Assembly: GCA_029554865.1 (NCBI GenBank)
Contig: JAKPUX010000092.1
Coordinates: forward strand, 19,915-83,914
DNA: 64,000 nt
From: a bacterium
GTDB lineage: Bacteria > Zhuqueibacterota > Zhuqueibacteria > Residuimicrobiales > Residuimicrobiaceae
Direction of reading: 5' to 3'
Positions 6,082 through 55,901 of the stretch are shown here, piece by piece; the stretch's first letter is position 1; every line of letters starts with the position of its first letter. Position numbers and translations under genes: made by a program. A model generated the notes under the pieces. That model had not been told where the DNA came from. It saw only the letters and a list, made by a program, of their open reading frames with translations, and did no database searches.

Positions 6082-7422
6082 CTAAAACGAGCCCTGCATG
6101 CCCGGCAACCGCCGCGCCGCCAGTGCTTCCTGCTGTTCCTGAAGGGCTTTCCTGCGCGCGGCCAGCTGGGCCCGCACGCGCGGATCAGCCAGCATCCGCC
6201 GGCGGTAATGCTCCATTTTGGCCACCACCAGGGTGATTCCGTAAACCATCCAGATATGATTTTTAACATAGAGATTGCGATAGTCCGGCGAGGGCAGCAT
6301 CCCGATCGCAAAGGCGATGACGCCCGTGACCGCGGCGGAGGAGATATGGTAGAGAAAGGGATCCGTGCTCCGCCTGGTTTTGAAACCGATGAAAAGAAAG
6401 GTGATGATAAGGGCGATAAAGAGCAGGCCGCCCGGATAGCCCAGTTCCGCCGCGACCAGCAGATAGCTGCAGTGAACGACCTGCAGGCCGGCGGTCTCCT
6501 TGTTGACAAACTCTTTATAATTGTTCAGCCCCACCCCCGTGAGCGGGTGTTCATTGATGATGCGCCACGCATCGAGGGCCAGGCTCTTGCGGCTCGATGA
6601 ATGGTCGCCCATCATCGATTTTTCCGAGTCACTGAAGCGCTCGACGATGATCGTGCCATAACGCGCTGCCCCGATCAGGGCGACCACGGCGATCACCGCC
6701 AGCAGTCCGCGCGCCTTTTTGGTCAGGGCCTTGCCCCGGACAAAGTCGAGCCCGAACATGATGATCATCGATCCGGCGAAACCGAGCCAGTTGGCGCGGT
6801 TCATGGTGGCGTAGAGGGCGGTCACGCCGAAGAAAAAGGCGACCACATAGAGGGGATGAAACCTGGGCCGCAGATAGACCGCCATGCGAAAGATCAGAAC
6901 CGACATCAGGGAAAAATAGAAACCCGCCACACTCGGATGGACGAAGGTCCCGCGCGCCTGCCAGTCGCCCGGCTGTTCGCCGAGAAAGTAGAGCCCCACC
7001 GGACCGCGCAGCCACTGGTGGATGGCCACAGAACCCTGAAAAAAGAGGCCGAGAGCGAAGCCCAGGAAAAGATACTGCAGATCCTCTTTGGTATTGACGA
7101 AATTGATGATCGCCAGGAAGATGAGCAGGGTGCGCAAATTGGCCGCCAGCTCCTGGTTGACAAAGGGAATATTCGGCGCAAAAAAGAGCCCGACCGCCGA
7201 CCAGGCGAAAAAGGCATAGGTGAGCACCATCGAAATCCTGGCCAGCGGCGCCGGAGCGATCCGCTTGCGGCCCAGAATGTACAGCATCAACAGCGGAATG
7301 TCCATGACCAGTAGCAGATCCGGCCCGAAGATAACCTCCTGGATGCTCTCGAAGGTGATCCCCTGCGCCACCGTCGCACAAAAAGTGAAGAGGATCAGGA
7401 CATATTTAAAGCTGTTCTGCAT
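6082..7422 (-). CDS. O-antigen ligase / Wzy-like polymerase family membrane protein
   Basis: Polytopic protein with a Wzy_C-like region. The start is placed at the internal MQNSFKYV with a GAGAGG RBS. The 12-codon upstream extension in the track overlaps the neighbour and has no RBS. Confidence 0.65.
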   Translation of the reverse strand: MQNSFKYVLILFTFCATVAQGITFESIQEVIFGPDLLLVMDIPLLMLYILGRKRIAPAPLARISMVLTYAFFAWSAVGLFFAPNIPFVNQELAANLRTLLIFLAIINFVNTKEDLQYLFLGFALGLFFQGSVAIHQWLRGPVGLYFLGEQPGDWQARGTFVHPSVAGFYFSLMSVLIFRMAVYLRPRFHPLYVVAFFFGVTALYATMNRANWLGFAGSMIIMFGLDFVRGKALTKKARGLLAVIAVVALIGAARYGTIIVERFSDSEKSMMGDHSSSRKSLALDAWRIINEHPLTGVGLNNYKEFVNKETAGLQVVHCSYLLVAAELGYPGGLLFIALIITFLFIGFKTRRSTDPFLYHISSAAVTGVIAFAIGMLPSPDYRNLYVKNHIWMVYGITLVVAKMEHYRRRMLADPRVRAQLAARRKALQEQQEALAARRLPGMQGSF

Positions 7423-8665
7423 CACGCCTCTCGCGCAGGGAACGGCCGCCGGCCTCATAAAGGGCGAAGGCGGCGAAAAATATCAGCAAGGGAAGAACCG
7501 GAATGCGGTAGCGCGGCACCACCAGCATCGCGACATGCAGCGCCATATAATAACCCAGCAGCAGATGAATGAAGGCGAGCTCGCGCCACCTCCTCCGACT
7601 CAGCCAGACCCCGGCGCAGAAGAGAAGCAGGATGGGGTAGTAACTGAGGGCGAGGAGGAGCTGTACCAGACCTCCACCCTGCCGTTTCATCCCGCTCGGT
7701 GCCCCCTCGTAAACCCAGAACCAGAAGCGGAAAAATTTTTTAACCATGAGCCCCGCGGCCGCCAGAGGCTGCTCCTTGATATGTTTCAGCGCCTCTCCGG
7801 TCAGGAGTGCGTCGCGGTCGACCTGGTTGAGCCCGGCCGTCATGCTGTCCATCACAGCCATGGTCTTTGCATAGCTGTAACGGCCGTCATGGGGCCGGTA
7901 ATTGCCGGTCCAGAGCACATCCCCCGATCCCACTGCGACCGGCACCGCGGCTCCGAAGGTCTGGTAGTTGCGCAGGGTCCAGGGCAGGATCGGCAGCGCA
8001 AAAAAGAGACCATAAACCAGGGTACGACCCAGCGACGGCCAGATTCCCCGGCGCCGCAGCAGCAGAGCGAACAACAGGAGCAGGGGCAGCAGCATGGTCA
8101 CGCCCCGCGTCAGGGTGGCCAGCCCCCCGGCCAGGCCGGCCGCGGCCAGGAGAGGCCACGTGGGCCGCTCCAGGGCGCGCATCGCCAGCCAGATCGCCAG
8201 CAGAAAAAGAAAGATGAAGAGGCTCTCGGTGTAGAAATAGGTATTGATGACCATCAGTTCCGGCAAAAAGAGAACCAGAACAAAGGCGATCAGTCCGGGC
8301 ACGCGGCCGAAGAGGGCGCGGGTGATGAGCCAGGCCAGCCAGGCGGAGGCGGTACCGAAAAGCACCTGCAGCAGCTCGATCAACAGGGGATGGACACCCG
8401 CCAGCGCATAAGTCCCCGCCAGCAGGAAGGGATAGAGCGGCGCCACGAACAGGGTCGGATTGACCCCGTCCTGGCTGAAGCCCCGGCCGGCGAGAAGATT
8501 CATCGCAATGCTGTGATAGGTGCTGCCGTCCAGCGAGGCCGTGCCGCCGATGTTCTGGGTCAGAACGACCAGGACCACCCGCAGCAGGAGCCCGGCGGCA
8601 CCGACGATCCAAAGCAGACGCCGGGTCATCTCCGGGCTCTCCATCTCTTCCAGCCAGCGCTTCAA
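7406..8665 (-). CDS. GT-C fold membrane glycosyltransferase (ArnT/PMT_2, family 39/83-like)
   Basis: 419 aa with about 11 TM helices and an N-terminal pattern like dolichyl-phosphate-mannose protein mannosyltransferase / ArnT. Confidence 0.65.
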   Translation of the reverse strand: MKRWLEEMESPEMTRRLLWIVGAAGLLLRVVLVVLTQNIGGTASLDGSTYHSIAMNLLAGRGFSQDGVNPTLFVAPLYPFLLAGTYALAGVHPLLIELLQVLFGTASAWLAWLITRALFGRVPGLIAFVLVLFLPELMVINTYFYTESLFIFLFLLAIWLAMRALERPTWPLLAAAGLAGGLATLTRGVTMLLPLLLLFALLLRRRGIWPSLGRTLVYGLFFALPILPWTLRNYQTFGAAVPVAVGSGDVLWTGNYRPHDGRYSYAKTMAVMDSMTAGLNQVDRDALLTGEALKHIKEQPLAAAGLMVKKFFRFWFWVYEGAPSGMKRQGGGLVQLLLALSYYPILLLFCAGVWLSRRRWRELAFIHLLLGYYMALHVAMLVVPRYRIPVLPLLIFFAAFALYEAGGRSLRERRDAEQL

Positions 8666-10434
8666 GGCAGCGGTTTCTCCTTTTTAACCCGGTAGAGCTC
8701 GACCACAGGACTGATCTGCAGCTTGTTCCGGGGCTCCATACGCACAATCAGCTCGCAGTTCTCCCGAACCCATTTATAAAAAAGCTCGCGCTGCTCCACC
8801 CGATCCGGATAGCGCTGGCGCGAAAGCGGCCACTCGTAGCGGGCCCTGGTGAAGCTGTCGAGCACGAGGTAGTCCAGCCCCTGCTCCTGAACGTAGGCGC
8901 GGGCGTCGTGATCGCCAGTGCGCTGCCGGCCATGGGCGAACATCTTGGGGACCACGCCGAAGAGGTTATAGACGCGGCGGTAGTCCGGCGAACGGCGGAT
9001 GATCTCCAGATTCAGGTCCAGGCTGCTGAGGAGCGGAGGGGCGAACTCTTCGGTGCCGATGCGGCTCTGTTCCGGGAGGTTCTGCTCGATCCACTCCTTC
9101 ATGCGGGTGCGTGTATCAACTTGATACAGGGCCAGGTCATAACGCAGGCTCTTGCAGAGCTGGGGCGCGATGGCAGCGGCAATGACGATCACATTAAATA
9201 TCAAAAGATTACGCTTGCTCTTCATTCTCTCCGCCGCGGCGGAGAGGAGTTCAGCGGCTATCAGTAGCAAAAATGGCACCAAAGGCAGCAGATGGCGCAT
9301 CGCCTTGTAGTTCATCTGGCCGATTACGGCATAGAGGAGCAGCGGAAAGATGAGGATAAGAATATCCTCGCGGCGGCGGCGCCAGAGCAGATAGAGGATG
9401 CCGAGCATGAAGAGCAGGGTCACGCCCCAGCCCAGGCTGGCCGGGAAGGTGTTGTCATAGAAAAAGCCGTAGCCGGGGGAATGGTCGCCGGTGAAATAGG
9501 AGAAGAAGCTCCCCCCCGAGCCGAGTTTGCCGGTCTGCTCGAACTCGGCAGTGCCGGCGACGCTCTCCCAGAAGCGGCCAGGGTCGAGGAGGGGCAGAGG
9601 GCAGGCGATGAGAAAGGCGGCGATGGTGGCCAGGCCGGTCAGCCAGATGCGGCGGTCGATCAGGGCGGCGAGGAAGCGGCTGCGGCGCGGCTCCTCTGCC
9701 CCTGCAGCGTCATGCGCGGGGGCAAGAAAGTGGGCGGCCACGATGGGCAGAATGATGAGGCCGGCGTTATACTTGGTCGCCACCGCCAGGCCGGCGAAGA
9801 GGGCGGCTCCGACATAGTCGCGCATCCTTCCATCGCGGAAGATGCGGATGCTGAAGTAGAAGGAGAGCGTGGTCAGCAGGGTGAGCACAATATCGACGGT
9901 GCCGAAGTGGGAATTCTTGACCGGCAGAAAGGTTACCGCCCAGAAGGCAGCGGCCCAGAGCCCGGTGCGGCGGCTGTAAAGACGCCGGCCGGCCGCATAG
10001 ATGACCCAGATGGTCATCACCCCGGCCAGCAGGGAGAGCCAGCGCCCAACCAGGTGAAAATGGAAGGGGTGGAGATAGTAATAGACCTTGACGGCGGCCA
10101 GCGAGGTGGCCGTCCCGCTCACCATCAGCCAGAGGATGTAGGGGATAAAGGCGGCCGCCAGGATGAAGGCATAGAGGGGGGGATAGCCCCGAAGCAGGAA
10201 GAAGGTCTCCCTGGACCAGGAGGCATAGTCGAGTAAATTGCCGGCATGATAAACCAGCTTCATCTCGTCCGGATGGTAGCGGAAGGGGTCGCCGAAGCCG
10301 AGCCCGAGCAGGCGCAGGAGGAATCCCACCCCGGCCAGAAGCAGCAGGGTGCGGTGTTCTGTCCACCACTTGCGCCGTTCCGTGTTGATCAATGTTCCCA
10401 AATCATCCTGCCACTTTTTTAAAGAGTGCTTCAT
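8662..10434 (-). CDS. GT-C fold membrane glycosyltransferase (ArnT/PMT_2-like) with C-terminal soluble domain
   Basis: 590 aa. A YHPDE motif sits in the first periplasmic loop. The polytopic N-terminal half is followed by a roughly 200-aa hydrophilic C-terminal domain. Confidence 0.7.
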   Translation of the reverse strand: MKHSLKKWQDDLGTLINTERRKWWTEHRTLLLLAGVGFLLRLLGLGFGDPFRYHPDEMKLVYHAGNLLDYASWSRETFFLLRGYPPLYAFILAAAFIPYILWLMVSGTATSLAAVKVYYYLHPFHFHLVGRWLSLLAGVMTIWVIYAAGRRLYSRRTGLWAAAFWAVTFLPVKNSHFGTVDIVLTLLTTLSFYFSIRIFRDGRMRDYVGAALFAGLAVATKYNAGLIILPIVAAHFLAPAHDAAGAEEPRRSRFLAALIDRRIWLTGLATIAAFLIACPLPLLDPGRFWESVAGTAEFEQTGKLGSGGSFFSYFTGDHSPGYGFFYDNTFPASLGWGVTLLFMLGILYLLWRRRREDILILIFPLLLYAVIGQMNYKAMRHLLPLVPFLLLIAAELLSAAAERMKSKRNLLIFNVIVIAAAIAPQLCKSLRYDLALYQVDTRTRMKEWIEQNLPEQSRIGTEEFAPPLLSSLDLNLEIIRRSPDYRRVYNLFGVVPKMFAHGRQRTGDHDARAYVQEQGLDYLVLDSFTRARYEWPLSRQRYPDRVEQRELFYKWVRENCELIVRMEPRNKLQISPVVELYRVKKEKPLP

Positions 10435-11497
10435 AATCGGAGGTCACCTTGTCCCAGGAGTAGCGGGCGTGGACGCGTTCGCGGACGACCTGACGGTAGC
10501 GGGCCACGTCGAGGGGATGGTCGAGCAGATGCTGCAGCCGGGCGCGCAGCGAATCTCTTTCCCGGGTGGAGAAATAGCAGCCGGCTTGTCCCAGCACCTC
10601 GTGGTGTTCGGGCACGTCGTTGGCCAGCACGCAGTTGCCGTAGCCCATCCCCTCCAGCAGGGCGGGATGGGTGCCGCCCACCTCGGTGGCCTGCACGTAG
10701 CAGTAGGCGTGGGACTGCAGTTCACGATAGCCCTGCCCGAATATGTAGCCGGTGAAGATGATGCGCGGGTCGCGGGTGGCGCGCAGCCCGGCGATATAGT
10801 CGCTGGCGTAGGGGGCATCGCCGACCATGACCAGTTTTTTGTCGGTCTTGACCTTCTCAAAGGCCTCGACCACGCGGTGGGCGTTGTTCTCCGGCTCCAT
10901 GCGGCTGACGTAGAGCACATACTCGCGCTCTTCCAGCCCGAAGCGGTCGAGGGTCTCGCGGCTCCTGACCGGCGTCTCCGGGGCCCCGTAGGGGATATAG
11001 GTCGACTCTTTCTGGAACTTTTCCTGGTAATAGCTCTGCACCTCGCGGGCATCCGAGACCACGGCGGTGGGGGTGAAGGTGGCGAGAAACTCGGAGATGC
11101 GGTAAAAGGCCTTGCCCGCCCAATTCCATTTCTGCCGCTTCCACTCCAGGCCGTCGACGTTCAATATCACCGGCTTACCCGCCAGACGGGGCAGGATGCA
11201 AAAAGCCGCATTGGCGCTGTTGCAGATAAAGACGACATCATAGGGTATGAAAAAGCTGCAGAGGGTGCAGACCAGGGTGTGGACCACAGTATCGAGATAT
11301 TTGTGGCTGATGGTCGGCAGAATCCTGATGCGCACCCCCTTGTAAAAGGGTTCGCGATAATCGATGATGTTGCTGCGGCCGTAGACCGTGACCTCGTGGC
11401 CGCGCTCAGCCAGCCGGGGCGCCATCTGTTCGATGAAGGTTTCGAAGCCGCCGTAATTGGCCGGTATGCCGCGGATGCCCATGATGGCGATTTTCAC
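10403..11497 (-). CDS. Glycosyltransferase family 4 with DUF1972-type N-terminus
   Basis: MKIAIMGIRGIPANYGGFETF is the hallmark N-terminus of DUF1972-GT4 enzymes (rhamnosyl/glucosyl transferases of cell-wall polysaccharide loci). Confidence 0.8.
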   Translation of the reverse strand: MKIAIMGIRGIPANYGGFETFIEQMAPRLAERGHEVTVYGRSNIIDYREPFYKGVRIRILPTISHKYLDTVVHTLVCTLCSFFIPYDVVFICNSANAAFCILPRLAGKPVILNVDGLEWKRQKWNWAGKAFYRISEFLATFTPTAVVSDAREVQSYYQEKFQKESTYIPYGAPETPVRSRETLDRFGLEEREYVLYVSRMEPENNAHRVVEAFEKVKTDKKLVMVGDAPYASDYIAGLRATRDPRIIFTGYIFGQGYRELQSHAYCYVQATEVGGTHPALLEGMGYGNCVLANDVPEHHEVLGQAGCYFSTRERDSLRARLQHLLDHPLDVARYRQVVRERVHARYSWDKVTSDYEALFKKVAG

Positions 11498-13299
11498 AGC
11501 CGCACCTCCCGGCCCACCGTCGCCGCAGCGTCCGGCATCAAGCCGGGCCGGCTCCCGCCGTTCAGGACCAGATCAGGATTGGGGAGCGCCGGGGGCTCCT
11601 GCAGCCGCCAGATCTCGACCGTCGTGCGCGAGCCGCAGACCATCTCCACCCGGTAATAACGTTCCTTCAGCAGCGCCTCGATGAAGGGCCAGTAACGGCT
11701 GAATTTCTTTGCAGTGTAGCCATCCAGGATGATAAAGGCGGGGGGATCGGCGCTGAGACGCTCCTCCAGGCCGGGGTCGTATTTCATGAAAAAGAGGGTG
11801 GGATGGGAGACCCCGTCGAAGGGCTGCATTCCCGCAGCGTAAGTCCAGATCATCGCCCCGCTCAGCACGGCATCCTGCGGCTTGCCCTCGCGGAGGAGGA
11901 TGCTCTCCACCTTCGCCAGGGTGGCTGGCGACCAGACGCACTCGTAGCGCGGGGTGAGGAGGCGGCCGGACCAGGCGGCGCTGATGAAGAGGGCTGCGGC
12001 TGCAAGCATGGCGGCCGGCTGCATTCGTCCGCCCCTGCGCCGGGCCTTCCAGCCTGTCACCGCGGCGGCGAAGAGAAAGCCCATGCAAACGACCACGAGC
12101 CAGTGGAACGGAAGCGTCCAGGTGACGCGGAAGAGGGCGAATACCACCCCGTAGAGCCTGGCCCAAAGGAGCATGCGCCCGCAGCGGGGAACGGCCGCAT
12201 TCCCGGCCGGCAGCCAGGCGGCGCCGAGCAGAAGCAGGGCCGGCAGGGCTTCGAGGAAATACTGGGTGTAAAAACCGCGCGAAGCCGATTGAAAAGCGTA
12301 AGCCAAAACCAGGATCACCAGCCAGAGCCCAAGGAATACCCGGAACTTTTCCCTTCTCCCCGCCCCCTCCTCTTCCCGGCCGCGGCGCCTCAGGCTCAAC
12401 AGGGCCGCGGCGATGGCCGGCAGGGCGAAGAGGAGAGCATCCCGCCAGGCCCCCAGGGTGTAGCCCGGATCCTGGTCGAGAATGCGAAATCCCGTTGTGT
12501 CGACCACCCGCTGCTGAGCGGGCAGGATGCCGATTGTATGGGCGAGGCGGTTCCAGACCAGATTGAGGGGATTGATCTGGGAAAAGAGGAGTTCGCGGCC
12601 GCCGAGGGGCCCCCAGTAGTAGAATGCCGCCAGCAGGCAGAGACCCAGATAGCCGGCTGCGTAAAGGGCCAGGCTCCGCCAGCGCGAACCGGCCGCGGGC
12701 TCCCGCTGCAGGAGCAGAAAAAGTCCGGTGGCGAGGGGCATGTATAGGGTCGATTGGCGCACATAATAGGCCAGCGCCGCCATGATGCCGCTGAGAATGA
12801 AATAGCTCCACATCCCGCGCTCCTGGAGGGCGCGCAGCAGGAACCAGGCGCTGAGCAGGCTCAACAGCACCGCCGGCATCTCGGTCTTGACCACCGTCGA
12901 CCAGATCAGGGTGAAGGGCAGGAAAAGATAGATCGCGGCGGCCAGCCAGCCGCGCAGGGGATCGTAGAGCCGCGCCCCGATCCGGTAGATGAGCCAGCCG
13001 ATGGCGAGGGAGGCCAGGAGCGGCATGAGCCGGCCCGCCGTGAGCGAGACCCCGAAGAGCTTGATGAAAAGGGCGAGCAGGTAGGCGTAGAAGGGCTGAC
13101 GGGAGCCGTAATCGATGACCGGATGCAGCCCCTGCCAGATCAGCCGCCCATCGAGCAGGTGGGCCCCCTCGTCCGGGTTGATCCAGCGCACTGACATCAG
13201 AACAAGGCGCACTGCGGCCGCGGCAGCGAGGGTGAGCAGCATGAGCAGGGCGGGGCGTTCCGCCAGCCATCTGCACACGTTATGGAATATACGTGCCAT
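11494..13299 (-). CDS. GT-C fold membrane glycosyltransferase (ArnT/PMT_2-like)
   Basis: 601 aa. WINPDEGAHLLDG (a DE motif) lies in the first loop after TM1, with many TM helices. Confidence 0.75.
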   Translation of the reverse strand: MARIFHNVCRWLAERPALLMLLTLAAAAAVRLVLMSVRWINPDEGAHLLDGRLIWQGLHPVIDYGSRQPFYAYLLALFIKLFGVSLTAGRLMPLLASLAIGWLIYRIGARLYDPLRGWLAAAIYLFLPFTLIWSTVVKTEMPAVLLSLLSAWFLLRALQERGMWSYFILSGIMAALAYYVRQSTLYMPLATGLFLLLQREPAAGSRWRSLALYAAGYLGLCLLAAFYYWGPLGGRELLFSQINPLNLVWNRLAHTIGILPAQQRVVDTTGFRILDQDPGYTLGAWRDALLFALPAIAAALLSLRRRGREEEGAGRREKFRVFLGLWLVILVLAYAFQSASRGFYTQYFLEALPALLLLGAAWLPAGNAAVPRCGRMLLWARLYGVVFALFRVTWTLPFHWLVVVCMGFLFAAAVTGWKARRRGGRMQPAAMLAAAALFISAAWSGRLLTPRYECVWSPATLAKVESILLREGKPQDAVLSGAMIWTYAAGMQPFDGVSHPTLFFMKYDPGLEERLSADPPAFIILDGYTAKKFSRYWPFIEALLKERYYRVEMVCGSRTTVEIWRLQEPPALPNPDLVLNGGSRPGLMPDAAATVGREVRL

Positions 13300-13318
13300 C
13301 CTGTCAGCCTCCGCCCTT

Positions 13319-14431
13319 CTAGCCCTCGAAATGGTTGATGGTTTCCGCGACGTAGAGCACCTCCTCGTCGCTCAGCTCCGGATAGATCGGCAGCGAGAGC
13401 ACCTCGGCGGCGCAGCGCTCGGCCACCGGATGGCTCCCGGCGGGCACGCCCAGATCCCTGTAGGCGTTCTGGAGATGGCAGGGGACGGGGTAATGAATCT
13501 GGGTTCCGATGCCGTGGTCAGCCAGATGGCGGCGGAGTGCATTGCGCGCCTGGCAGCGCACCACATAAAGGTGAAAAACGTGCCTGCTCTCCTCCTGCTG
13601 CCGGGGCAGGATGACCGCGGGATGGCTGATGGCTTTAGAGTAGAGCGCGGCAATCTCGCGGCGGCGGCGGTTCCAGCTTTCGAGATGGGGCAGCTGGGCC
13701 GAGAGAATGGCGGCCTGCATCTCGTCGAGGCGGCTGTTGAAGCCCTTGATTTCGTGATAATAGCGCTCGAGCTGACCATAGTTGCGCAGCAGGACGATCT
13801 GCCGGGCCCGCTCGTCGTCATCGGTGACCACCATACCGCCGTCGCCGAAGGCGCCGAGATTTTTGCTGGGGTAAAAACTGAAGCAGCCATAGGCGCCGAA
13901 GGTGCCCGCCTTGCCGCCCTGATACTCCGCGCCGTGGGCCTGGCAGGCATCCTCGATCACCGCCAGGTGGTGGCGCCCGGCGATGGCCATCACCTCGTCC
14001 ATGCGGCAGCAGTTGCCGTAGAGATGGACCGGGATGATCGCCCGCGTGCGCGCGCTGATCTTTTCCTCGATGAGATCGGGATTGATGCAGAAGGAGAGGG
14101 GATCGACGTCGACCAGCACCGGCGTGGCCCCGGCGAAGGAGATCGCCGAGAGGGTCGGAATGGCGGTGTTGGGAACGGTGATCACTTCATCGCCCGGCTT
14201 CACTCCGCAGGCGACCAGGGCGAGGTGGAGGGCTTCGGTGCCCGAGCCCACACCGATGGCATGGCGCACCCCGAGATGAGCGGCAAAGGCCTCCTCGAAG
14301 GTGCTCAACTCCCTGCCCAGAACGAACCAGCCGCTGGCCAGGACCCGGCTGACAGCAGCGTCGATCTCCTCTTTCATCCCCAGATAGTGTCTGGTCAAAT
14401 CGCCAAATGGTACCTGCATCCTGATTTCCAT
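13319..14431 (-). CDS. DegT/DnrJ/EryC1/StrS-family PLP-dependent sugar aminotransferase
   Basis: 370 aa. The VPFGDL...GWFVLG...GVGSGTEALHLAL pattern and SGWxxLG match ArnB/WecE-type nucleotide-sugar aminotransferases. The start may instead be the internal MQVPFGDL. Confidence 0.85.
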   Translation of the reverse strand: MEIRMQVPFGDLTRHYLGMKEEIDAAVSRVLASGWFVLGRELSTFEEAFAAHLGVRHAIGVGSGTEALHLALVACGVKPGDEVITVPNTAIPTLSAISFAGATPVLVDVDPLSFCINPDLIEEKISARTRAIIPVHLYGNCCRMDEVMAIAGRHHLAVIEDACQAHGAEYQGGKAGTFGAYGCFSFYPSKNLGAFGDGGMVVTDDDERARQIVLLRNYGQLERYYHEIKGFNSRLDEMQAAILSAQLPHLESWNRRRREIAALYSKAISHPAVILPRQQEESRHVFHLYVVRCQARNALRRHLADHGIGTQIHYPVPCHLQNAYRDLGVPAGSHPVAERCAAEVLSLPIYPELSDEEVLYVAETINHFEG

Positions 14432-14432
14432 C

Positions 14433-16139: not shown

Positions 16140-16163
16140 TACCTCTCCCGCCCCCTCCCCCGC

Positions 16164-17913: not shown

Positions 17914-17933
17914 AACTCCGGTTTCCGCTTTTT

Positions 17934-18797
17934 CTATTCAAGGGTCATTAATTCAATGCCGGCCTGCTCGAGGATTCGCCGCGTCTCCGGCGCACAGAGG
18001 AGTTCGCACTCGCGCTGCCGCCGTTTCTCCGCGGCCGTCGCCGGCGCGCCGGGGGCATAATCGGCCGGATGGCACATCCATTCGCTGCGGCCTCTCTCCA
18101 GGCCTGATGCCCATCCAGCCAGGAAGGAGCCGGGGTCCGGGTGGAGAAACCAGCTGAATCCGTAAAAATCGTCGGCGCCGGCCATTTCCCGATAATACTT
18201 TTCACAGCGCCGGCCGGTAAGGGCGACGCTGCGTTGCTGCAGCCGGCCGAGCAGGGCGGCAGCGCCCGAGCCCGCGGGCTCGCCTTTGCCGCGCACCCGC
18301 CGCACCCATCGGATCCCCCTCTCCTTCATCAGCGGAGCGGCCGCTGCGGCCACCGCTGGAAGCAGGTGGACGTGGTGATGGCTGTCGAGATGACCCACCC
18401 GCACCCCCAGTCCATCGAGACGGTCAAACTGGGCGTTGATTTCGTCGGTCAGCTCCACAGCGGAGAGGCGCCCGCACAGGGCGCGCCGCCAGAAATCCCA
18501 TTTGCCGGGCAAATTACCCTGCCCGTCGGTCAGGCTCGGCAGTCGCTCCGCCGGCAGGAGCGGCCTTCCGCAAGTCAGGTTGAGGTGAAGTCCCAGCACG
18601 AGTCCGCTGCCCGCCGCCAGGGCGCAGGCCTCGTCCAGGGCGGAGCCGTTGGCCACCAGCGAAGCGGCGGTCAGGATCCCATCACGCCAGGCACGCCAGA
18701 TGCCGCGGTTGACCGCCGCAGAGAGGCCGAAATCGTCGCCATGGACAACCAATCCCTTCACGGCGGCGAGGCCGCCATGACCGTCCGCCATGATCAT
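17934..18797 (-). CDS. ChbG/YdjC/HpnK-family carbohydrate deacetylase
   Basis: 287 aa. VHGDDFGLSAAVNRGI...HLDSHHHVH is the YdjC family signature. Confidence 0.75.
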   Translation of the reverse strand: MIMADGHGGLAAVKGLVVHGDDFGLSAAVNRGIWRAWRDGILTAASLVANGSALDEACALAAGSGLVLGLHLNLTCGRPLLPAERLPSLTDGQGNLPGKWDFWRRALCGRLSAVELTDEINAQFDRLDGLGVRVGHLDSHHHVHLLPAVAAAAAPLMKERGIRWVRRVRGKGEPAGSGAAALLGRLQQRSVALTGRRCEKYYREMAGADDFYGFSWFLHPDPGSFLAGWASGLERGRSEWMCHPADYAPGAPATAAEKRRQRECELLCAPETRRILEQAGIELMTLE

Positions 18798-18801
18798 CCC
18801 G

Positions 18802-20145
18802 CTACGCTTCCCGCTCCCCGGCAGCTATTTCATGCAGCCGGAGCTGGAAAAAATTATAGAGCTCGTCCAGATTGCGCCGGGAATCAAAGATCGCGGCCAC
18901 CCGCGCGCGCCCGGCCCGGCCGAGGCGCCGCTGCATCTGGGGCGAGTCCAGCACCTCGAGCATCGTCTGCGCCAGCAGCTTGGGCTCGGCCTCGTCGAGC
19001 AGCAGCCCGCTCTCCCCTTTCTCGACCAGCTCGGGAATGCCGGAGATGGTGGTCGAGATAACCGGGAGCTCCATAGCCATGGCCTCGGCGATGACGTTGG
19101 GGATGCCGTCGCGATTGCCATCCTCCTCCACCACGCAGGGAAGGACGAAGAGGCTGGCTCCACCATAGGCCTCGATCACGGCGCTCGGCGCCATGTAGCC
19201 GGTGATCTCGATCTGCTCCATGAGATGGTTGAGGCGGATGAACATCTCCAGCCGCGGCCGCTCCGGTCCGTCGCCGACGATGAGACACTTGAAGGCCACT
19301 CCCTGGTCATGGAGGATCTTGCAGGCGTGCAAAAGCACCCCCAGCCCCTTCTTCGGCACCAGGCGGCCGACCGAGAGAATGACGGGGGGCTCCTGCTTTG
19401 TCCGGGCGACCGGCTGCAGACGGGTCAGGTCGAGTCCGTGATAATTGACCAGAATCTTGTCGCCCACCAGCTCGCCAAAATTCTGCAGCAGATAGTCCCG
19501 GTTGTAGCGGGTGCAGGTGACGATGAAGCGGGCCCGCTTGAGCTTCTCCTCAAAGATGACCTGCGGGGTGAAGATGTCGTAGGCGTGGGCCGTGAAGGAG
19601 AAGGGGATCTCCAGGAGCATCGAGGCGAGCAGGGCCAGGCTCGAGGCGGAGTCCGCATACTGGGCGTGGATGAGGCTAAAGCCCTCCTCCTCCATCTGCC
19701 GGGCCACCGGCACGATGAGGAAAAAATTGAGCAGCACATTCTGCCGCTGCGCCTTGGTCAGCTCCTGCTTGTGCGCCGCCCGCCAGAGGCTGCCGAGCAG
19801 CGACTCGCTGCGGGTGCGGCGGCGCCGGGCGAAGGACCAGCACCTGAGATAGCGCACCGGATGGCGGAAGAGCCAGGCGAAATGGGCGCCGATCACCTTG
19901 CCGGCCTGCAGTGAGGGCAAAATATAAAAGGTCCGCTGCGCCAGCTCGGGCACCTCGCTGTTCTCCCGCCCCGCCGGCGGGCGGCTCAGGGCGTAGGGCC
20001 GCAGATCCAGTCCCCGCTCCAGCAGTCCGGCCACCTCATTGACGATGAAGCGTTCGGAGAGAGCGGGAAAATAGTTGAGAAAGAGCGCGACCCTGGCGCC
20101 GGGCTGCAGTGTCTGCAGCCGTTCAGTAGATGAATCGGTCTTCAC
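18802..20145 (-). CDS. Glycosyltransferase family 4
   Basis: 447 aa. The C-terminal EGFGIP-like region (DGIPNVIAEAMAMELPVISTTISGIPE) is the GT4 motif. Confidence 0.8.
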   Translation of the reverse strand: MKTDSSTERLQTLQPGARVALFLNYFPALSERFIVNEVAGLLERGLDLRPYALSRPPAGRENSEVPELAQRTFYILPSLQAGKVIGAHFAWLFRHPVRYLRCWSFARRRRTRSESLLGSLWRAAHKQELTKAQRQNVLLNFFLIVPVARQMEEEGFSLIHAQYADSASSLALLASMLLEIPFSFTAHAYDIFTPQVIFEEKLKRARFIVTCTRYNRDYLLQNFGELVGDKILVNYHGLDLTRLQPVARTKQEPPVILSVGRLVPKKGLGVLLHACKILHDQGVAFKCLIVGDGPERPRLEMFIRLNHLMEQIEITGYMAPSAVIEAYGGASLFVLPCVVEEDGNRDGIPNVIAEAMAMELPVISTTISGIPELVEKGESGLLLDEAEPKLLAQTMLEVLDSPQMQRRLGRAGRARVAAIFDSRRNLDELYNFFQLRLHEIAAGEREA

Positions 20146-20150
20146 TGCCT

Positions 20151-21158
20151 TTACTCCCCCTCTTTGATATACTCGTCATACCTGTCGTGGTAAAAAGCAA
20201 CGGTCCTGGCTACGCCTGCGGCCAGATCCACCACCGGCCTCCAGCCGGTCGCCGCGGTCATCTTGTCGCAGGAAACGACGAACTTGCGGATATCAATGCT
20301 CTCGCGCTCCGGCGGAAAAGGGATGTGCACATACTCCCCCTTGCCGACCGCGGCGATGACGCTCTTGACCATGTCCAGAAAAAGGGTCTCCACTCCCGAA
20401 CCGATCATGTAGATCTGGCGGTCGGTCTCGGGCACCAGCGCAGCGCGGACAAAGGCGTCGACCACATCCCCGACATAGACATAATCCCGGGTCTGCAGGC
20501 CGTCCCCGTAGACCGTGATCGGACGCCCCTGCATGGCATTGCGGATGAACCAGTTGAGGATGCCGTAATAGCCGTGCTGCATCTGGCAGCGGGGGCCGTA
20601 GACATTGTTGAGGCGCAGGGAGACGGCTGCAAAGCCGTAAATCTTGCCGTAGAGAAAGAGATACTTCTCCGCGGCCAGCTTGTTGATGCCGTAAACGTCA
20701 GTCGGATGGTCCGGATGGTTTTCATCCACCGGCAGATAGACGGGCTCGCCGATCTGGCCCCGGCTGCCGGCGTAGACGACCTTGGCGGCCGGATTGGCCT
20801 CCGCCACCGCGCGGCAGAGCGCGATGGTGCCGTTGCAGTTGATATCGACATCGAGGCCGGGATCGGCCATCGAGATCTCGCGGCCGACCTGCGCGGCGAG
20901 ATGAAAGATGTAATCCTTCCCCTCCACCATCTTCTCAAGCAGCTCCCGGTCGCGGACGTCGCCCTTGACGAAGAGAAGCTCTTCATGGATCTCCGTGATG
21001 TTGGCGGGATTCCAGCCATAGGGTTCGAGGCAGGCATCGAGCAGGGTTACCTCAACCCCCTCGTGCACCAGGCGCTGGGCCAGGTTGCTGCCGATAAAGC
21101 CGAGGCCGCCGGTGATCAGGGCTTTTTTGCCGGCCAGTTGTGAAAAATCAACCTTCAT
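20151..21158 (-). CDS. NAD-dependent epimerase/dehydratase (UXS-like SDR), paralog of 16164..17183
   Basis: 335 aa. ITGGLGFIGSNLAQRL ... NNVYGPR. It shares clear similarity over its full length with the other UXS-like gene. Confidence 0.8.
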   Translation of the reverse strand: MKVDFSQLAGKKALITGGLGFIGSNLAQRLVHEGVEVTLLDACLEPYGWNPANITEIHEELLFVKGDVRDRELLEKMVEGKDYIFHLAAQVGREISMADPGLDVDINCNGTIALCRAVAEANPAAKVVYAGSRGQIGEPVYLPVDENHPDHPTDVYGINKLAAEKYLFLYGKIYGFAAVSLRLNNVYGPRCQMQHGYYGILNWFIRNAMQGRPITVYGDGLQTRDYVYVGDVVDAFVRAALVPETDRQIYMIGSGVETLFLDMVKSVIAAVGKGEYVHIPFPPERESIDIRKFVVSCDKMTAATGWRPVVDLAAGVARTVAFYHDRYDEYIKEGE

Positions 21159-22218
21159 GTGCAGTCATTTCCTCGATGATCGCCGCAAACTCTTCACCGA
21201 GCCGCGGCATGGTGCAGTGATTCTGAAAAACCCGGTGCCCCTCCATGCCGAGGCGTTCTCTCAGCGCCGGATCGGCCCGGAGGGTGAGAATGGCTTCAGC
21301 CAGGGCGTGGGGATCCGCTCGCTCGATCAGCCAGGCGCTCTCCCCGTGCGTGAGCAGCTCCTGCACCGGTTCGTTCCGCGCCGTCACCAGGGGCCGGCCC
21401 ATGGCGATCGCCTCGACCACCTTGTTGGTCGTCACCCGCAGCACCCGATCGTTGTCGCCGAAGATGCCGAGATAGAGGTCCGCGCGGGCCATCATCTGCG
21501 CCAGTTCGGCGTAGGGGACGGTATCATAAAATCGCACATTATCCAGGCCAAGCTCCCTGGCCAGAGCCCGGTCCTGATCGTAAGTGATGCCTTTGCCGAC
21601 GATCTGGAAAATAATATCGCGCTCCTCCCGCAGCAGATGTGCAGCCCGGAGAATGTATTTGATGCCGTGAAAAGGAGCGTACTCGCCATGAAAATGGACG
21701 AGAAAGCGCCCCTCCTCCCTCTGCGCCGGCAGCGGAAAAATCTGGGTCTCATCCACCGCCAGGAAGATGCGCCGCATCTTGCCGGCAGGGACCTTGAATA
21801 CCTCGCAAAACCAGTCGATGTGCGCCCGGGTCTCCAGCACAGTCAGGTCCGCCAGCTTGTAGGTGAACCAGTCGCTGAAGCCGTAGAGCCGCGCCATCAG
21901 CGACCCCGGTTTGGCCTTGCCCCGGTCGTAGACCATGGTATCCAGGGTGGTGATATACATGTCGAAGAGCAGCGGCTTGCGCGTGAAGAGCCGGATGAAG
22001 GGCAGAATGATCTGGCCGTAAAAGCCGACCAGGACCAGGTCGCAGCTGCGCGCGGCGCGGACCGCCCGCCAGATCAGCCCAGGATAGTGTTTGAAAGAAC
22101 GGTCCGGCGGGAAGCAGCCGACCACCTCATAGCCCTGCGCCAGGAGGGCATGATAAACAATATGGGTGCGGGAATAGGAGAGCTCCCGTCCTGCCACAAA
22201 AAGGATACGCTTCTTCAC
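21148..22218 (-). CDS. Glycosyltransferase (GT4/GT1-like, GT-B fold)
   Basis: 356 aa. C-terminal GT-B motifs are present. The N-terminal domain is divergent. Confidence 0.65.
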
Positions 22219-23189
22219 TCGGCCTTGTCCTGCTCCCTGGCCGTCTCTCCCTGCCGGAGCTCGAGCCGGCGCACCCGGTAAAGGGCGCTTTCGATGAGGC
22301 GGCGATTGAAGCCGATGAGGTCCGCCACCAGGCCGATGATGAAGACTTGAAAGCCGATCATCAGCAGGACTGCGGCCAGGATCAGGGACTGGATATGGCC
22401 GGCCCCGCCGGTGGTGATGTAAAAATAGAGAAAACGCAGACCGATGAGAAAGCCCGCCCCGAAGATCGTGCCGCCAATGTAGGAGAACATCTTGAGCGGT
22501 TCGTACATGGTATAGATGCGCGTAATGGTGGCAATCGAACGCTTGATATAGTTCCAGTTGCCCTTGAAGAGGCGCGATTCGCGCAGTTTGCTGTTGGTGC
22601 GCACCGGCACATGGCTGACCGCCAGGTTTTTCTTGCCGGCCTGGATAATGGTCTCGAGGGTATAGGTGAAACGCGAGAGCACATTCATCTGCAGGGCGGC
22701 CTCGCGCGAGAGGGCGCGGAAGCCGCTGGTGGCGTCAGGGATCTCCGTAGCCGAGACCTGGCGCACCACCCAGCTGCCGAGGTTCTGCAGCCGCTTTTTC
22801 ATCCACGAAAAATGGTGGATCTCGTCGGTCTGGCGGTCGCCGATCACCAGCTCGGCCTGGCCGTCGATGATGGGGCGCACCAGGCTCGGAATGTCCGCGC
22901 CATTGTACTGGTTGTCGGCGTCGGTGTTGACGATGATGTCGGCGCCGAGACGCAGCGAAGCGTCGAGCCCGGCCATGAAACCGTTGGCCAGCCCCTTGTT
23001 CTTGGTCATGCGCACGATATGGTGGACGCCCGATCTCCGCGCCACCTCCGTGGTCTCGTCGCTGCTGCCATCGTCGATGATCAGCACCTCGATCTCATCG
23101 ACGCCGGCGATATGGCGCGGCAGATCGGCAAGGGTCAGGGGCAGGGTCTCCGCCTCATTGAAGCAGGGTATTTGAATGATCAGTTTCAC
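22215..23189 (-). CDS. Polyprenyl-phosphate glycosyltransferase, GT2 (DPM1/ArnC/GtrB-like) with two C-terminal TM helices
   Basis: 324 aa. [12 protein letters not shown]...[10 protein letters not shown]...DADNQY (DXD), followed by about 80 aa containing two hydrophobic helices. Confidence 0.85.
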
Positions 23190-23192
23190 GGT

Positions 23193-24170
23193 CTAGTTGA
23201 TGATCTCCTCGATATTGTAATCCTTGATCTCCTTGGCGTGGGTGAAGATGATCATCTCCGCCAGCAGGCCGATGGAGACCATCTGGATGCCGATGATGAA
23301 GAGGATCGACCCGAGCAGCAGCATCGGCTTGCCGGCGATGCCGCCGAAGCCGAGGATCCGGTAGATAAACAGATAGATGTTGATGCCTGCACCGATGAGG
23401 GCGAAAAGCGCGCCGATGAAGCCGAGGAAGTGGAGGGGCTTTTTCGAGTATTTGCTCAGAAAAATGACGCTGACCAGATCGAGGCTGCGGCGGATGTAGT
23501 TTTTCGGATAGACCGACTGGTTGAAACGGCCCGGCAGCTGTTCGACCTTGCCCTCGGCGATGCGGTAGCCCTGGCGCTGCGCCAGCACGGGCAAAAAGGC
23601 ATTGAGGGTGCCGTAGTAGGGGACGTGGTCGAGCACCTCGCGCCGCAGGGCCAGGACCCCGCTGTTGACGTCGTGGAGGTGGAGGCCGGTCATGCGGTTG
23701 GTCAGACCGTTAAAAGTGCGCGAGACGATCCGGTTCAGCCCCGAGTCACGGCGGGGGTAGCGCACCCCGATAACGACATCCTCCCCGGCATCGATCTGCT
23801 TCAGCAGGGCGAGGGCATCGGCGGGTTTGATGCGCACCCGGCAGGTGAAGTAGAGCAGGACCTCTCCTGTGGCGATCTGCACCCCGGCGTCGAGCGCCGA
23901 GGCCTCGCCAAAGGTCGAGCGCAGCCGTGCCGCCTTGACCCCGGTCTCGCTGCGGCTGATGCGGAGCAGCTCCTTCCAGGTGGCGTCGGTGCTGCCGTCA
24001 TCCACATAGATGAGTTCATGAGGCTGCCGCCACTCCGCCAACGCAGCCATGATCTCACGGTGCATGCCGGCGATCTCCCCGGCATTGTTGTAGGTCAGGA
24101 CGATGACCGAAAAGGAGGCCGCTGCCCGTACAGGGGTGAGGGGCTGTTGCAAGTTTTGGGATTCTGTCAT
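23193..24170 (-). CDS. Polyprenyl-phosphate glycosyltransferase, GT2 (GtrB/ArnC-like) with C-terminal TM helices
   Basis: 325 aa with a GT-A domain and two C-terminal TM helices (FLGFIGALFALIGAGINIYLFIY...LLLGSILFIIGIQMVSIGLLAEMI). Confidence 0.8.
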   Translation of the reverse strand: MTESQNLQQPLTPVRAAASFSVIVLTYNNAGEIAGMHREIMAALAEWRQPHELIYVDDGSTDATWKELLRISRSETGVKAARLRSTFGEASALDAGVQIATGEVLLYFTCRVRIKPADALALLKQIDAGEDVVIGVRYPRRDSGLNRIVSRTFNGLTNRMTGLHLHDVNSGVLALRREVLDHVPYYGTLNAFLPVLAQRQGYRIAEGKVEQLPGRFNQSVYPKNYIRRSLDLVSVIFLSKYSKKPLHFLGFIGALFALIGAGINIYLFIYRILGFGGIAGKPMLLLGSILFIIGIQMVSIGLLAEMIIFTHAKEIKDYNIEEIIN

Positions 24171-24229
24171 ATCAGGCCGCTGATAGAATAACGGTTAAAA
24201 ATCTTCACGCCTGCCCGCAGGGGGCCGGT

Positions 24230-25189
24230 TTACTGTTCCGTCTGCAGAAAGGTCTTGCGTGTGCCGGTCTGGACGATCAATTTGCCGATCAGACCGAAGA
24301 AAAAAAGCTGTGCCGCCGCCGCCCAGAAAACCACGGTCAGGGTGACCAGGATATTCATTTCCGCCAGCTCGGCGCCCCTCGCCGCTGCCGCATGCAGGAT
24401 GGCGGCGAGGCTGAGAGAACCGAGCAGGGCGAAAAAGAGGGCGACCGCCGAAAAAAAGACCAGGGGATTGACCAGGTGCTTCATCAGCAGCCGGATGCTG
24501 GTCAGATCCATCACCACCCGGAAGGTGCGGCTGAGATTGTATTTCGAGGTGCCGAAACGGCGCGGGTGGTGGCGCACCGCCAGTTCGGTGATCTCGGCGC
24601 CCTCGATGCGCATCAGGGCCGGGATGAAACGGTGCAGTTCCCCATAAAGAGAGATGCGGCGGAGCATCTCGCCGCGAAAGGCCTTGAGCGAACAGCCGGT
24701 ATCGTGCAGCCGGACGTCGGTGAGAGAGCAGATCAGCTTGTTGGCGATTTTTGACGGCACCTTGCGCAGCACCAGCTTGTCCTTGCGGTTCTTGCGCCAG
24801 CCGCTCACCACATCATAGCCCTCATGCATTTTTTCGAGCAGCTGCGGGATGTCGAGGGGGTCGTTCTGGAGATCGCCGTCCATGGCCACGACGATCTCGC
24901 CGCGTGTGGCGGCAAAGCCGGCGGCCATGGCCGCGGACTGGCCGAAATTGGCGCGGAAGAGGATCACCCGCAGCCGGGGATTGGCCGATGCCAGCCGGCG
25001 CAGTATCTCGCGGGTGCCGTCGCGGCTGCCGTCATCGACCAGGATCACCTCATATGGACGCCCCAGCCCCTCCATCACCGGATGGATAGCCGCCCAGAGC
25101 CGCTCGACGCTCTCCACCTCGTTGTAGATGGGGACGACGACGGAGAGAAAGGGCGTTTCGCTCCCCTCAGCTCGAAGCTTTTCGTTCAT
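24230..25189 (-). CDS. Polyprenyl-phosphate glycosyltransferase, GT2 (ArnC-like) with C-terminal TM helices
   Basis: Start is placed at MNEKLRAEG, which removes the Cys/Arg-rich 47-aa extension in the track. LSVVVPIYNE...ILVDDGSRDGT...DGDLQND, then two C-terminal TM helices. Confidence 0.8.
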   Translation of the reverse strand: MNEKLRAEGSETPFLSVVVPIYNEVESVERLWAAIHPVMEGLGRPYEVILVDDGSRDGTREILRRLASANPRLRVILFRANFGQSAAMAAGFAATRGEIVVAMDGDLQNDPLDIPQLLEKMHEGYDVVSGWRKNRKDKLVLRKVPSKIANKLICSLTDVRLHDTGCSLKAFRGEMLRRISLYGELHRFIPALMRIEGAEITELAVRHHPRRFGTSKYNLSRTFRVVMDLTSIRLLMKHLVNPLVFFSAVALFFALLGSLSLAAILHAAAARGAELAEMNILVTLTVVFWAAAAQLFFFGLIGKLIVQTGTRKTFLQTEQ

Positions 25190-52621: not shown

Positions 52622-52725
52622 CCTTGTTCAGTCCGATTTTTTGCACGAGGTGACGGAATTGACGAGATGTAAGGTCAAGAAAGTTCTGGTCTTAATAAAT
52701 TATTAAAAATTCATGACAAATGCAA

Positions 52726-52754: not shown

Positions 52755-52805
52755 TGATGGAAAACTCCTGCCCCCGGACGGGACGAGCCTGCCGGTCCCC
52801 CCGCC

Positions 52806-55891: not shown

Positions 55892-55901
55892 GGTGCACTC
55901 T

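Follow-up and report, generated by a model that had tools for sequence, protein, structure and literature searches.

In the 64,000-nucleotide stretch of contig JAKPUX010000092.1 analysed here (the window), one minus-strand gene string encodes four GT-C membrane glycosyltransferases and four GT2 glycosyltransferases together with enzymes that modify sugars. We hold, with modest confidence, that this string is a multi-component transmembrane (extracytoplasmic) glycosylation module inside a Wzx/Wzy-type polysaccharide locus of a KSB1-like bacterium. The mechanism class is already known, and the module is an unusually large version of known surface-polysaccharide decoration. What is new is its scale, with four GT-Cs and four GT2s of the polyprenyl-phosphate glycosyltransferase type accompanied by their own sugar-tailoring enzymes in one operon, and its conservation across an uncultured phylum. 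Also new are three atypical components, each a directly testable enzyme variant: a GT-C family without a Pfam model, a subfamily of ArnC-like polyprenyl-phosphate glycosyltransferase paralogs in which the DXD motif has given way to an Arg, and a conserved short-chain dehydrogenase/reductase (SDR) lacking the catalytic Tyr. As the mechanism itself was established before, the conceptual gain is a moderate one.

Glycosyltransferases and sugar-modifying enzymes of the module

Between 25718 and 385 the minus strand carries 21 consecutive open reading frames (ORFs) that either overlap their neighbours by 4-32 nt or lie no more than 60 nt from them, a packing that is operon-like. A preliminary description of this DNA had named one co-directional string, and every ORF it named lies in place, on the minus strand and tightly packed. 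The eight glycosyltransferases that define the module are:

7406..8665, minus strand: GTC1, short PMT_2 GT-C of 419 aa without a C-terminal soluble domain (PMT_2, 59 bits)
8662..10434, minus strand: GTC2, PMT_2 GT-C with an H-P-D-E loop-1 motif (PMT_2, 68 bits)
11494..13299, minus strand: GTC3, PMT_2 GT-C with an N-P-D-E loop-1 motif (PMT_2, 83.5 bits)
14433..16139, minus strand: GTC4, predicted 568-aa polytopic GT-C of a family without a Pfam model (hhalign, AlphaFold2, Foldseek)
17170..17913, minus strand: GT2a, DXD (TDGDAQ), juxtamembrane helices and no transmembrane hairpin, a DPM1/PpgS/GacI-like architecture (PF00535)
22215..23189, minus strand: GT2b, canonical DPM-synthase/AglJ-like, DXD (TDADNQ) and transmembrane hairpin (PF00535)
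23193..24170, minus strand: GT2c, paralog of ArnC architecture with a transmembrane hairpin and no DXD (F-T-C-R-V-R) (PF00535)
24230..25189, minus strand: GT2d, canonical ArnC/GtrB-type, DXD (MDGDLQ) and C-terminal transmembrane hairpin (PF00535, 114 bits)

The count of four GT-Cs given in the preliminary description was upheld: GTC1, GTC2 and GTC3 exceed the Pfam PMT_2 gathering cut-off of 26.1 bits, and GTC4, which has zero Pfam or NCBIfam matches, was recognized by profile alignment, structural modelling and structure search. The profile of GTC4 orthologs aligned to the GTC2 family with an hhalign probability of 95.9% over 289 columns. A comparison of GT-C structures, proposed earlier as a check, was carried out with an AlphaFold2 model of GTC4 (pLDDT 85.6, pTM 0.86), whose best Foldseek matches in the PDB were GT-C enzymes alone, with ArnT first (5ezm, E 5.8e-7) and then ALG12, STT3, PglB and ALG9; the likeness to ArnT is at the level of the fold (TM-score about 0.5, 14% identity). 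On this model, GTC4 is predicted to be a GT-C with an ArnT-like fold. A profile search of 1.84 billion representatives found 581 clusters related to GTC4, and none of ten distant members that were scanned reached a Pfam GT-C model. Because neither GTC4 nor these ten members reach one, GTC4 represents a GT-C family outside the Pfam models. One distant member of the family has weak, mostly sub-threshold Pfam matches of carbohydrate-binding-like type at its C-terminus.

GTC2 has weak extra matches to PMT and to Alg9-like (GT22) proteins. Membership of the GT-Cs in the GT39 protein mannosyltransferases was rejected: PF02366 was matched in GTC2 only, partially (28.5 bits, residues 131-233), and Pfam found no MIR domains in the GT-C proteins. 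The catalytic acidic residue of GT-C enzymes sits in the first extracytoplasmic loop, after TM1, and each of the four ortholog alignments has an invariant Asp in this first periplasmic loop: L-D46 in GTC1, H-P-D56-E57 in GTC2, N-[PA]-D43-E44 in GTC3 and E-S-D51 in GTC4. The [P]DE motif that had been noted in at least two of the proteins is that of GTC2 and GTC3. The pairing of GT-Cs with GT2s of the polyprenyl-phosphate glycosyltransferase type, from which the preliminary description had deduced lipid-linked monosaccharide transfer at the periplasmic face, is supported, and with it this predicted transfer.

All four GT2s match PF00535, and their closest solved homologs are ArnC, DPM synthase and GtrB. 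In the PDB, GT2d scored 173 bits against ArnC over its full length and 110 bits against GtrB, GT2c scored 105 bits against ArnC, GT2b matched DPM synthase (5mlz, 59.5 bits) and ArnC (57 bits), and GT2a matched ArnC at 67.5 bits in an alignment covering ArnC residues 8-223. Against NCBIfam, GT2d scored 184 bits with the ArnC model, under its cut-off of 529 and hence homologous but not equivalog, and GT2b scored 121 bits over its full length with the AglJ model, also under the cut-off. Because none of the GT2s reaches an NCBIfam equivalog cut-off, we treat them as members of the class and not as orthologs of the named enzymes.

The four GT2s differ in architecture. A C-terminal two-helix hairpin is present in GT2b, GT2c and GT2d, the three for which it had been described, and GT2a ends after its juxtamembrane helices. 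There is precedent for a GT-A enzyme without transmembrane segments that works with a separate membrane protein, namely GacI/GacJ (PMC8035078). The DXD motif is found in GT2a (DGD), GT2b (DAD) and GT2d (DGD), and in GT2c its place is taken by T-C-R, with F-T-C-R-V-R aligned to L-D-A-D-L-Q of ArnC. This substitution characterizes a subfamily, represented by GT2c itself (window 23193-24170), its orthologs in the related loci L001, L003, L006, L007, L011, L012, L014 and L015, and the homologs P0018-P0137. All 120 of the closest GT2c homologs (identity of 52% or more; candidate division KSB1 is the label of most that carry a source name) have T-x-R-V with an invariant Arg, and the subfamily retains the hairpin and has a very conserved C-terminal tail (...YNIEEII[NE]). 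The equivalent GtrB positions, D94, D96 and Q98, are the candidate catalytic base and Mg2+ ligands (PMC12698845). GT2c is predicted to be either metal-independent or non-catalytic. The earlier description of four DPM1/ArnC/GtrB-like enzymes therefore holds for family and class but not for equivalence: by DXD and hairpin status, the "four donor synthases" become two canonical enzymes (GT2b and GT2d), one hairpin-less (GT2a) and one DXD-less (GT2c). Likewise, the fourfold multiplication that had been emphasized is real, unusual and conserved, yet it is not one of four equivalent donor synthases.

Four enzymes predicted to modify sugars are encoded among the glycosyltransferases:

13319..14431, minus strand: DegT-family pyridoxal phosphate-dependent sugar aminotransferase (PF01041, 419 bits)
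16164..17180, minus strand: SDR1, extended SDR whose gene overlaps that of GT2a (Pfam, PDB, motif alignment)
17934..18797, minus strand: YdjC-family carbohydrate deacetylase of the HpnK/ChbG/NaxD superfamily (PF04794, 192 bits)
20151..21158, minus strand: SDR2, extended SDR with a canonical YGINK motif (Pfam, PDB, motif alignment)

SDR1 and SDR2 had been described as two UXS/ArnA-like decarboxylases, a reading that we reject. Their best PDB matches were UDP-Glc 4-epimerases (4zrm and 7ys8, 146-170 bits) versus about 100-105 bits for UXS, and the ArnA NCBIfam model scored 37 bits against a cut-off of 777. The active-site motif is T-S-E in decarboxylases and T-D-E in 4,6-dehydratases. The corresponding strand reads A-G-T-R-Q-Q in SDR1 and A-G-S-R-G-Q in SDR2, so the Glu signature of decarboxylases is absent; T-D-E is seen in 2hun. 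SDR1 also departs from the catalytic YxxxK motif. It reads NGINK, with Asn in place of the catalytic Tyr in 10/10 orthologs (sampled from L001, L003, L005-L009, L011 and L013), and in alignments with three solved enzymes this Asn falls on their catalytic Tyr. Even so, no other protein of the module is as well conserved as SDR1 (75-95% identity), and its gene overlaps that of the hairpin-less GT2a in every ortholog locus.

The aminotransferase belongs to the DegT family as had been proposed, but its assignment to the ArnB type did not survive comparison: the NCBIfam ArnB model scored 250 bits against a cut-off of 631, and in the PDB the protein matched 7b0d, QdtB and 2oga at 349-418 bits, WbpE at about 268 bits and ArnB at 185-212 bits. 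QdtB, 2oga (DesV) and WbpE are C3-aminotransferases, and by these scores the DegT protein appears nearer to C3-aminotransferases than to ArnB. The YdjC/HpnK deacetylase was confirmed by PF04794; its best NCBIfam matches were HpnK (136 bits) and ChbG (121 bits), both under cut-off.

The polysaccharide locus and its conservation

The module is embedded among genes of an acceptor-glycan pathway. The remaining members of the 21-gene string and the polysaccharide export genes upstream of it are:

385-1620 and 1617-2852, minus strand: two further GT4 glycosyltransferases (Pfam)
2849..4258, minus strand: Wzx-type (MOP) flippase (Pfam)
4265..6034, minus strand: NodU/CmcH-type carbamoyltransferase (Pfam)
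6082..7458, minus strand: Wzy_C-domain membrane protein (PF04932, 57 bits)
10403..11497, minus strand: GT4a, DUF1972-type GT4, Cps2T rhamnosyltransferase-like (Pfam and NCBIfam)
18802..20145, minus strand: GT4b, cytoplasmic GT4 glycosyltransferase, EpsE/WcaL-like (Pfam and NCBIfam)
21148..22218, minus strand: GT4c, cytoplasmic GT4 glycosyltransferase, WcaI/EpsE-like (Pfam and NCBIfam)
25167..25718, minus strand: YdjM-family membrane protein, head of the conserved core (Pfam PF04307, 63 bits)
44360..45841, minus strand: WbaP-type initiating phosphoglycosyltransferase (PF02397, 235 bits)
46863-49172, minus strand: Wzc-like chain-length/tyrosine-kinase protein (Pfam)
49188-49895, minus strand: Wza-like exporter (Pfam)

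The window contains nine GT4s, and Wzx, Wzy_C, WbaP, Wzc, Wza and GT4 genes for an acceptor glycan are encoded alongside the module. The locus also encodes pyruvyl-, methyl-, acetyl- and carbamoyl-transferases, among them the NodU-type enzyme that had been noted, which Pfam confirmed. In an attempt to sub-classify the Wzy_C protein (6082-7458), no NCBIfam match and no PDB sequence match was found, and its domain would fit a polymerase, a ligase or an O-oligosaccharyltransferase.

Relatives were reached through GTC4 and GT2c homologs, which gave 15 loci (L001-L015) labelled candidate division KSB1 or Calditrichota, with a few bin labels of doubtful reliability among them; GT2c was also found essentially identical on a 95-kb JGI metagenome contig (3300021603), whereas an exact-sequence look-up with GTC4 had no match. 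For co-occurrence across related genomes, which the preliminary description had suggested examining, the result was synteny of the module in about ten metagenomic genomes and contigs of KSB1/Calditrichota; across L001-L015 the synteny spans orthologs of 35-95% identity. The full order YdjM-GT2d-GT2c-GT2b-GT4-SDR2-GT4-YdjC-GT2a-SDR1-GTC4-DegT-GTC3-GT4-GTC2-GTC1-Wzy_C-carbamoyltransferase is colinear in L003. L006 and L007 are also colinear over the full string, with one or two genes below the detection filter, and L001 and L005 are colinear over the parts covered, with a methyltransferase and Wzx inserted in L001. The first eight genes stand in order in L011 and L012, and likewise in L015, but there the positions of GT4c and SDR2 are held by other genes. 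Wzy_C follows the last GT-C in L001, L003 and L005-L007, and Wzx lies inside the module in L001 and L015.

Smaller groups of genes hold together where the order does not. In distant genomes GTC4 relocates yet remains beside YdjC and GT2a-SDR1, the adjacency of YdjC, GT2a and GTC4 being kept in 10 loci, and DegT adjoins GTC3 throughout, even where gene order shifts. These conserved neighbourhoods suggest two sub-sets, one of YdjC, GT2a, SDR1 and GTC4 and the other of DegT and GTC3. At the head of the module, the YdjM ORF extends to 26018 with a ~100-aa N-terminal extension; its true start probably lies near 25718, because the orthologs, which head the module in L001, L003, L006, L011, L012 and L015, are only 179-183 aa long and lack the extension. 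The eight-gene core is also found in L014 (GCA_034521575.1, 2.6-Mb contig, 8500-16000) with no GT-C, Wzx or Wzy nearby. We considered this a candidate for a stand-alone core without GT-Cs and rejected it, as the copy appears degraded, with an incomplete GT2d that was not called as a gene, a GT4b broken into two ORFs and no more than a fragment of YdjM.

Upstream of the module the neighbour varies: L001 has a STELLO-type glycosyltransferase there, L003 a fucosidase and L015 an amine oxidase. In the window, two large genes lie at this position:

26458-30246, minus strand: apiosidase-like/Big_5/fn3 protein of 1262 aa, a large surface or secreted protein
30319-34449, plus strand: Big_1/invasin-repeat protein of 1376 aa with a type IX secretion system (T9SS) type A sorting domain (Por_Secre_tail, 31.5 bits against a cut-off of 23)

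Both proteins are absent at the corresponding position in related loci. Because the upstream neighbour differs between genomes, the adjacency of the T9SS cargo, put forward earlier as a possible target of glycosylation, appears incidental, and a functional link to either the cargo or the apiosidase-like gene was rejected.

Proposed mechanism and alternative readings

The closest parallels are transmembrane glycosylation systems (GtrA/GtrB/Gtr*, CsbB/GtcA/YfhO, SccN/SccM with SccP/SccQ, and CsdAB/CD/EF), in which, as predicted for the module, a membrane GT2 makes a polyprenyl-phosphate monosaccharide and a GT-C transfers the sugar outside the cytoplasm. Such systems can be attached to Wzx/Wzy pathways and may comprise more than one pair, and their flippase is in many cases encoded elsewhere or not known (PMC11127046, PMC8035078, PMC11754754). 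Wzx/Wzy-made O-antigens are glycosylated in the periplasm by GtrB and a GT-C with undecaprenyl-phosphate sugars (PMC11127046), a single S. mutans cluster carries two GT-A/GT-C pairs whose flippase has not been identified (PMC11754754), L. lactis has three such pairs, and variants with Wzx-type flippases exist (PMC8035078). The preliminary statement that a system of this kind is not a described pathway does not stand, since three- and multi-component transmembrane glycosylation is well described in the same three papers. The module differs from those systems in having four GT-C and four GT2 paralogs in one conserved operon with its own DegT, two SDRs and YdjC, and in including a DXD-less GT2, a hairpin-less GT2 and a GT-C without a Pfam model but no GtrA/SMR flippase. 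Most of what is known of extracytoplasmic glycosylation by GT2/GT-C pairs comes from O-antigen seroconversion in enterobacteria, from lipid A modification, from the wall polymers of Gram-positive bacteria and from mycobacteria; a module of this size in an uncultured phylum of the FCB group would rank among the most elaborate examples and offers matched donor/transferase sets for glycoengineering. A literature search on KSB1 glycan clusters found nothing relevant.

Part of the module recalls the NaxD route of Francisella (FlmF2/NaxD/FlmK), where a GT2 makes a lipid-phosphate N-acetylhexosamine (HexNAc), a YdjC-family deacetylase converts it to lipid-phosphate hexosamine (HexN) and a GT-C transfers the sugar. 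NaxD, of the YdjC superfamily, deacetylates undecaprenyl-phosphate-GalNAc before a GT-C transfers GalN (PMC11279074). The comparable gene set of YdjC, GT2a, SDR1 and GTC4 stays together in relatives. However, the likeness is at the level of the YdjC family only, and the acceptor of the NaxD route is lipid A, whereas the context of the module is a Wzx/Wzy locus. Further parallels to the NaxD route are Bordetella LgmA/C/B and mycobacterial PpgS/Rv3779, the mycobacterial acceptor being arabinogalactan. With the Ara4N pathway the module shares an ArnC-like GT2 (GT2d), a GT-C of predicted ArnT fold and a DegT-family aminotransferase. It does not mirror that pathway, as had been proposed: it contains no ArnA-like decarboxylase, formyltransferase, ArnD or ArnE/F, none of the latter three being found among the Pfam assignments of the main ORFs from 385-57692, and DegT is nearer to C3-aminotransferases. 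The absence from the locus of an ArnA-N-like formyltransferase and of a small ArnE/F/GtrA-type flippase had been observed correctly.

Under the reading of a glycosylation module acting on a Wzx/Wzy-type polysaccharide, a WbaP-type enzyme and GT4s would build an undecaprenyl-diphosphate (Und-PP)-linked repeat unit in the cytoplasm, and GT2b, GT2d and GT2a, with GT2c uncertain, would load single sugars from nucleotide sugars onto undecaprenyl phosphate. YdjC, GT2a, SDR1 and GTC4 may act together, so that lipid-phosphate HexNAc is made, deacetylated to lipid-phosphate HexN and transferred, as in the NaxD route; the DegT/GTC3 pair, perhaps with the ArnC-like GT2d, might handle and add an amino sugar. 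Candidates for flipping the donors are Wzx, a TIGR00374-like protein or the product of a gene elsewhere. The four GT-Cs would then attach side-branch sugars in the periplasm to the flipped repeat unit or the polymer, before or after the Wzy_C step and export. We infer the substrate, carrier and acceptor at each of these steps.

Several observations weigh against this scheme. The window has no dedicated small flippase. Wza, Wzc and WbaP lie ~20 kb off, beyond the two inserted genes, and within the available flanks they were not seen beside the module in relatives. Typical O-antigen or exopolysaccharide (EPS) loci are much less conserved than this module, a difference that might indicate a glycolipid or a protein glycan of conserved structure as its product. 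Rather than a polymerase, the Wzy_C protein may be a ligase or an oligosaccharyltransferase of the PglL type. Because GT2c and SDR1 lack canonical catalytic residues, the donors may number two or three and not four.

A bolder version, which we think unlikely, would make the module a bacterial counterpart of the eukaryotic lumenal ALG line. In N-glycan and glycosylphosphatidylinositol (GPI) assembly in eukaryotes (DPM1/ALG5 with ALG3/9/12/6/8/10, and PIG-M/V/B), cytoplasmic GT4-type steps and a MOP-family flippase are likewise followed by successive GT-C steps fed by polyprenyl-phosphate sugars that GT2s make, and GTC2 has an Alg9-like match while the GTC4 model matches ALG12 and ALG9. By this account an Und-PP oligosaccharide made by GT4s and flipped by the MOP flippase would be extended stepwise in the periplasm by four dedicated GT-Cs, using three or four polyprenyl-phosphate sugars that include HexN and an amino sugar, and would then pass to a Wzy_C-family polymerase, ligase or oligosaccharyltransferase. 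GT2c, with Arg where the metal ligand would be, would either synthesize a donor without metal or belong to a hetero-oligomeric synthase as a subunit that is itself non-catalytic, and the Tyr-less SDR1 would have a non-redox role. The likeness to ALG and GPI assembly is one of analogy, and the sequential action of four GT-Cs on one oligosaccharide is conjecture; if true, the product would be an envelope glycan conserved throughout the KSB1 lineage and not a variable O-antigen.

Other acceptors keep a low probability, mainly because the module is unusually conserved, the Wzy_C protein is not sub-classifiable, and WbaP, Wzc and Wza were not seen beside the module in the available flanks of relatives. 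The GT-Cs might modify lipid A or the lipopolysaccharide core in the manner of ArnT, FlmK or LgmB, adding cationic sugars (HexN via YdjC, an amino sugar via DegT) from undecaprenyl-phosphate donors to lipid A phosphates or core sugars. In favour of this, the structure search with GTC4 ranked ArnT first, ArnC is the enzyme that GT2d resembles most, and the Francisella/Acinetobacter NaxD route likewise combines a YdjC protein with a GT2 and a GT-C (PMC11279074). We regard this acceptor as unlikely, given that four GT-Cs exceed the number used in known lipid A modifications, that the genes are interleaved with GT4s, Wzx and Wzy_C, and that the similarity to ArnT by Foldseek is at the fold level only; ArnA, ArnD and ArnE/F are missing, and no protein reaches the NCBIfam equivalog cut-off for an Arn enzyme.

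Two further acceptors seem to us quite unlikely, and to a similar degree. Proteins could be glycosylated, either by the GT-Cs, which would O-glycosylate secreted or T9SS proteins in the manner of PMTs and for which the PMT_2 and weak PMT matches speak, or by en-bloc transfer of a periplasmically extended lipid-linked oligosaccharide by a PglL-like Wzy_C protein. The Wzy_C domain is common to PglL-type O-oligosaccharyltransferases, and the strong conservation of the module would fit a general glycan. The lineage has a T9SS, as indicated by the Por_Secre_tail domain of 30319-34449 and by PorV in L014, and in Bacteroidota the T9SS cargo is glycan-anchored via a Wbp/Vim-pathway sugar (PMC7468200). 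Against this stand the lack of MIR domains, the partial and weak PF02366 match, the position of the cargo gene on the opposite strand without conserved adjacency, and the finding that most PMT_2 proteins in bacteria are glycan or lipid transferases (PMC8035078). Alternatively, the product could be a conserved lipoglycan or glycolipid of lipomannan/lipoarabinomannan (LM/LAM) or GPI type, whose GlcN-containing lipid core would be made in the cytoplasm by the GT4s and YdjC and extended after flipping by GT-Cs with polyprenyl-phosphate sugars. An order of GT4 and deacetylase steps followed by GT-C steps is the logic of phosphatidylinositol mannoside (PIM)/LAM and GPI synthesis; the colinear core YdjM-GT2d-GT2c-GT2b-GT4-SDR-GT4-YdjC is kept across the lineage, and YdjC is closest to HpnK, an enzyme acting on lipid-linked GlcNAc. 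The occurrence of the core in L014 without neighbouring GT-C, Wzx or Wzy would also fit, but that copy looks degraded, the GT4s are most like EPS and colanic-acid enzymes that use Und-PP acceptors, and Wzx and Wzy_C are interleaved with the module.

Flanking genes of the window

The apiosidase-like gene and the oppositely oriented T9SS cargo gene separate the module from more polysaccharide genes farther upstream on the minus strand, which encode, in addition to the WbaP-type, Wzc and Wza proteins, a flippase-like/acetyltransferase fusion, pyruvyl- and methyl-transferases, an epimerase, AsnB, a GT4 and a second epimerase. The fusion is:

34439..36208, minus strand: flippase-like (LPG_synthase_TM/TIGR00374, MprF-type) domain fused to a hexapeptide acetyltransferase (TIGR00374, 108 bits against a cut-off of 43)

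By its domain match this protein is a possible candidate for a lipid-linked-sugar flippase; Wzx (2849-4258) is the other candidate within the window. Two stand-alone LPG_synthase_TM genes lie just upstream of the module in L015 (1-308 and 5954-6991). A search for small GtrA/ArnE/F/SMR-like multi-transmembrane ORFs found none in the locus; the sole small ORF with five transmembrane segments lies at 57711-58220, beside the PBP2 and RodA genes, and is probably MreD.

A scan for promoters and terminators in the 25.1-26.6 kb gap gave one weak sigma-70-like site, scored with a consensus that differs from FCB-group promoters. At the other end the gene string extends past the window, as the N-terminus of another GT4-like gene begins at 280 on the minus strand and the window start cuts this gene off. 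The upstream polysaccharide part also holds minus-strand genes for a glycerol-3-phosphate-oxidase-like FAD enzyme (39383-41056), the AsnB-type amidotransferase (41159-43039) and a STAS-domain protein (49987-50715). Beyond it, a housekeeping flank (51128-58220, minus strand) encodes a GlgA-type glycogen synthase, a TPR lipoprotein, Lgt, RodA/FtsW, PBP2 and the small ORF with five transmembrane segments.

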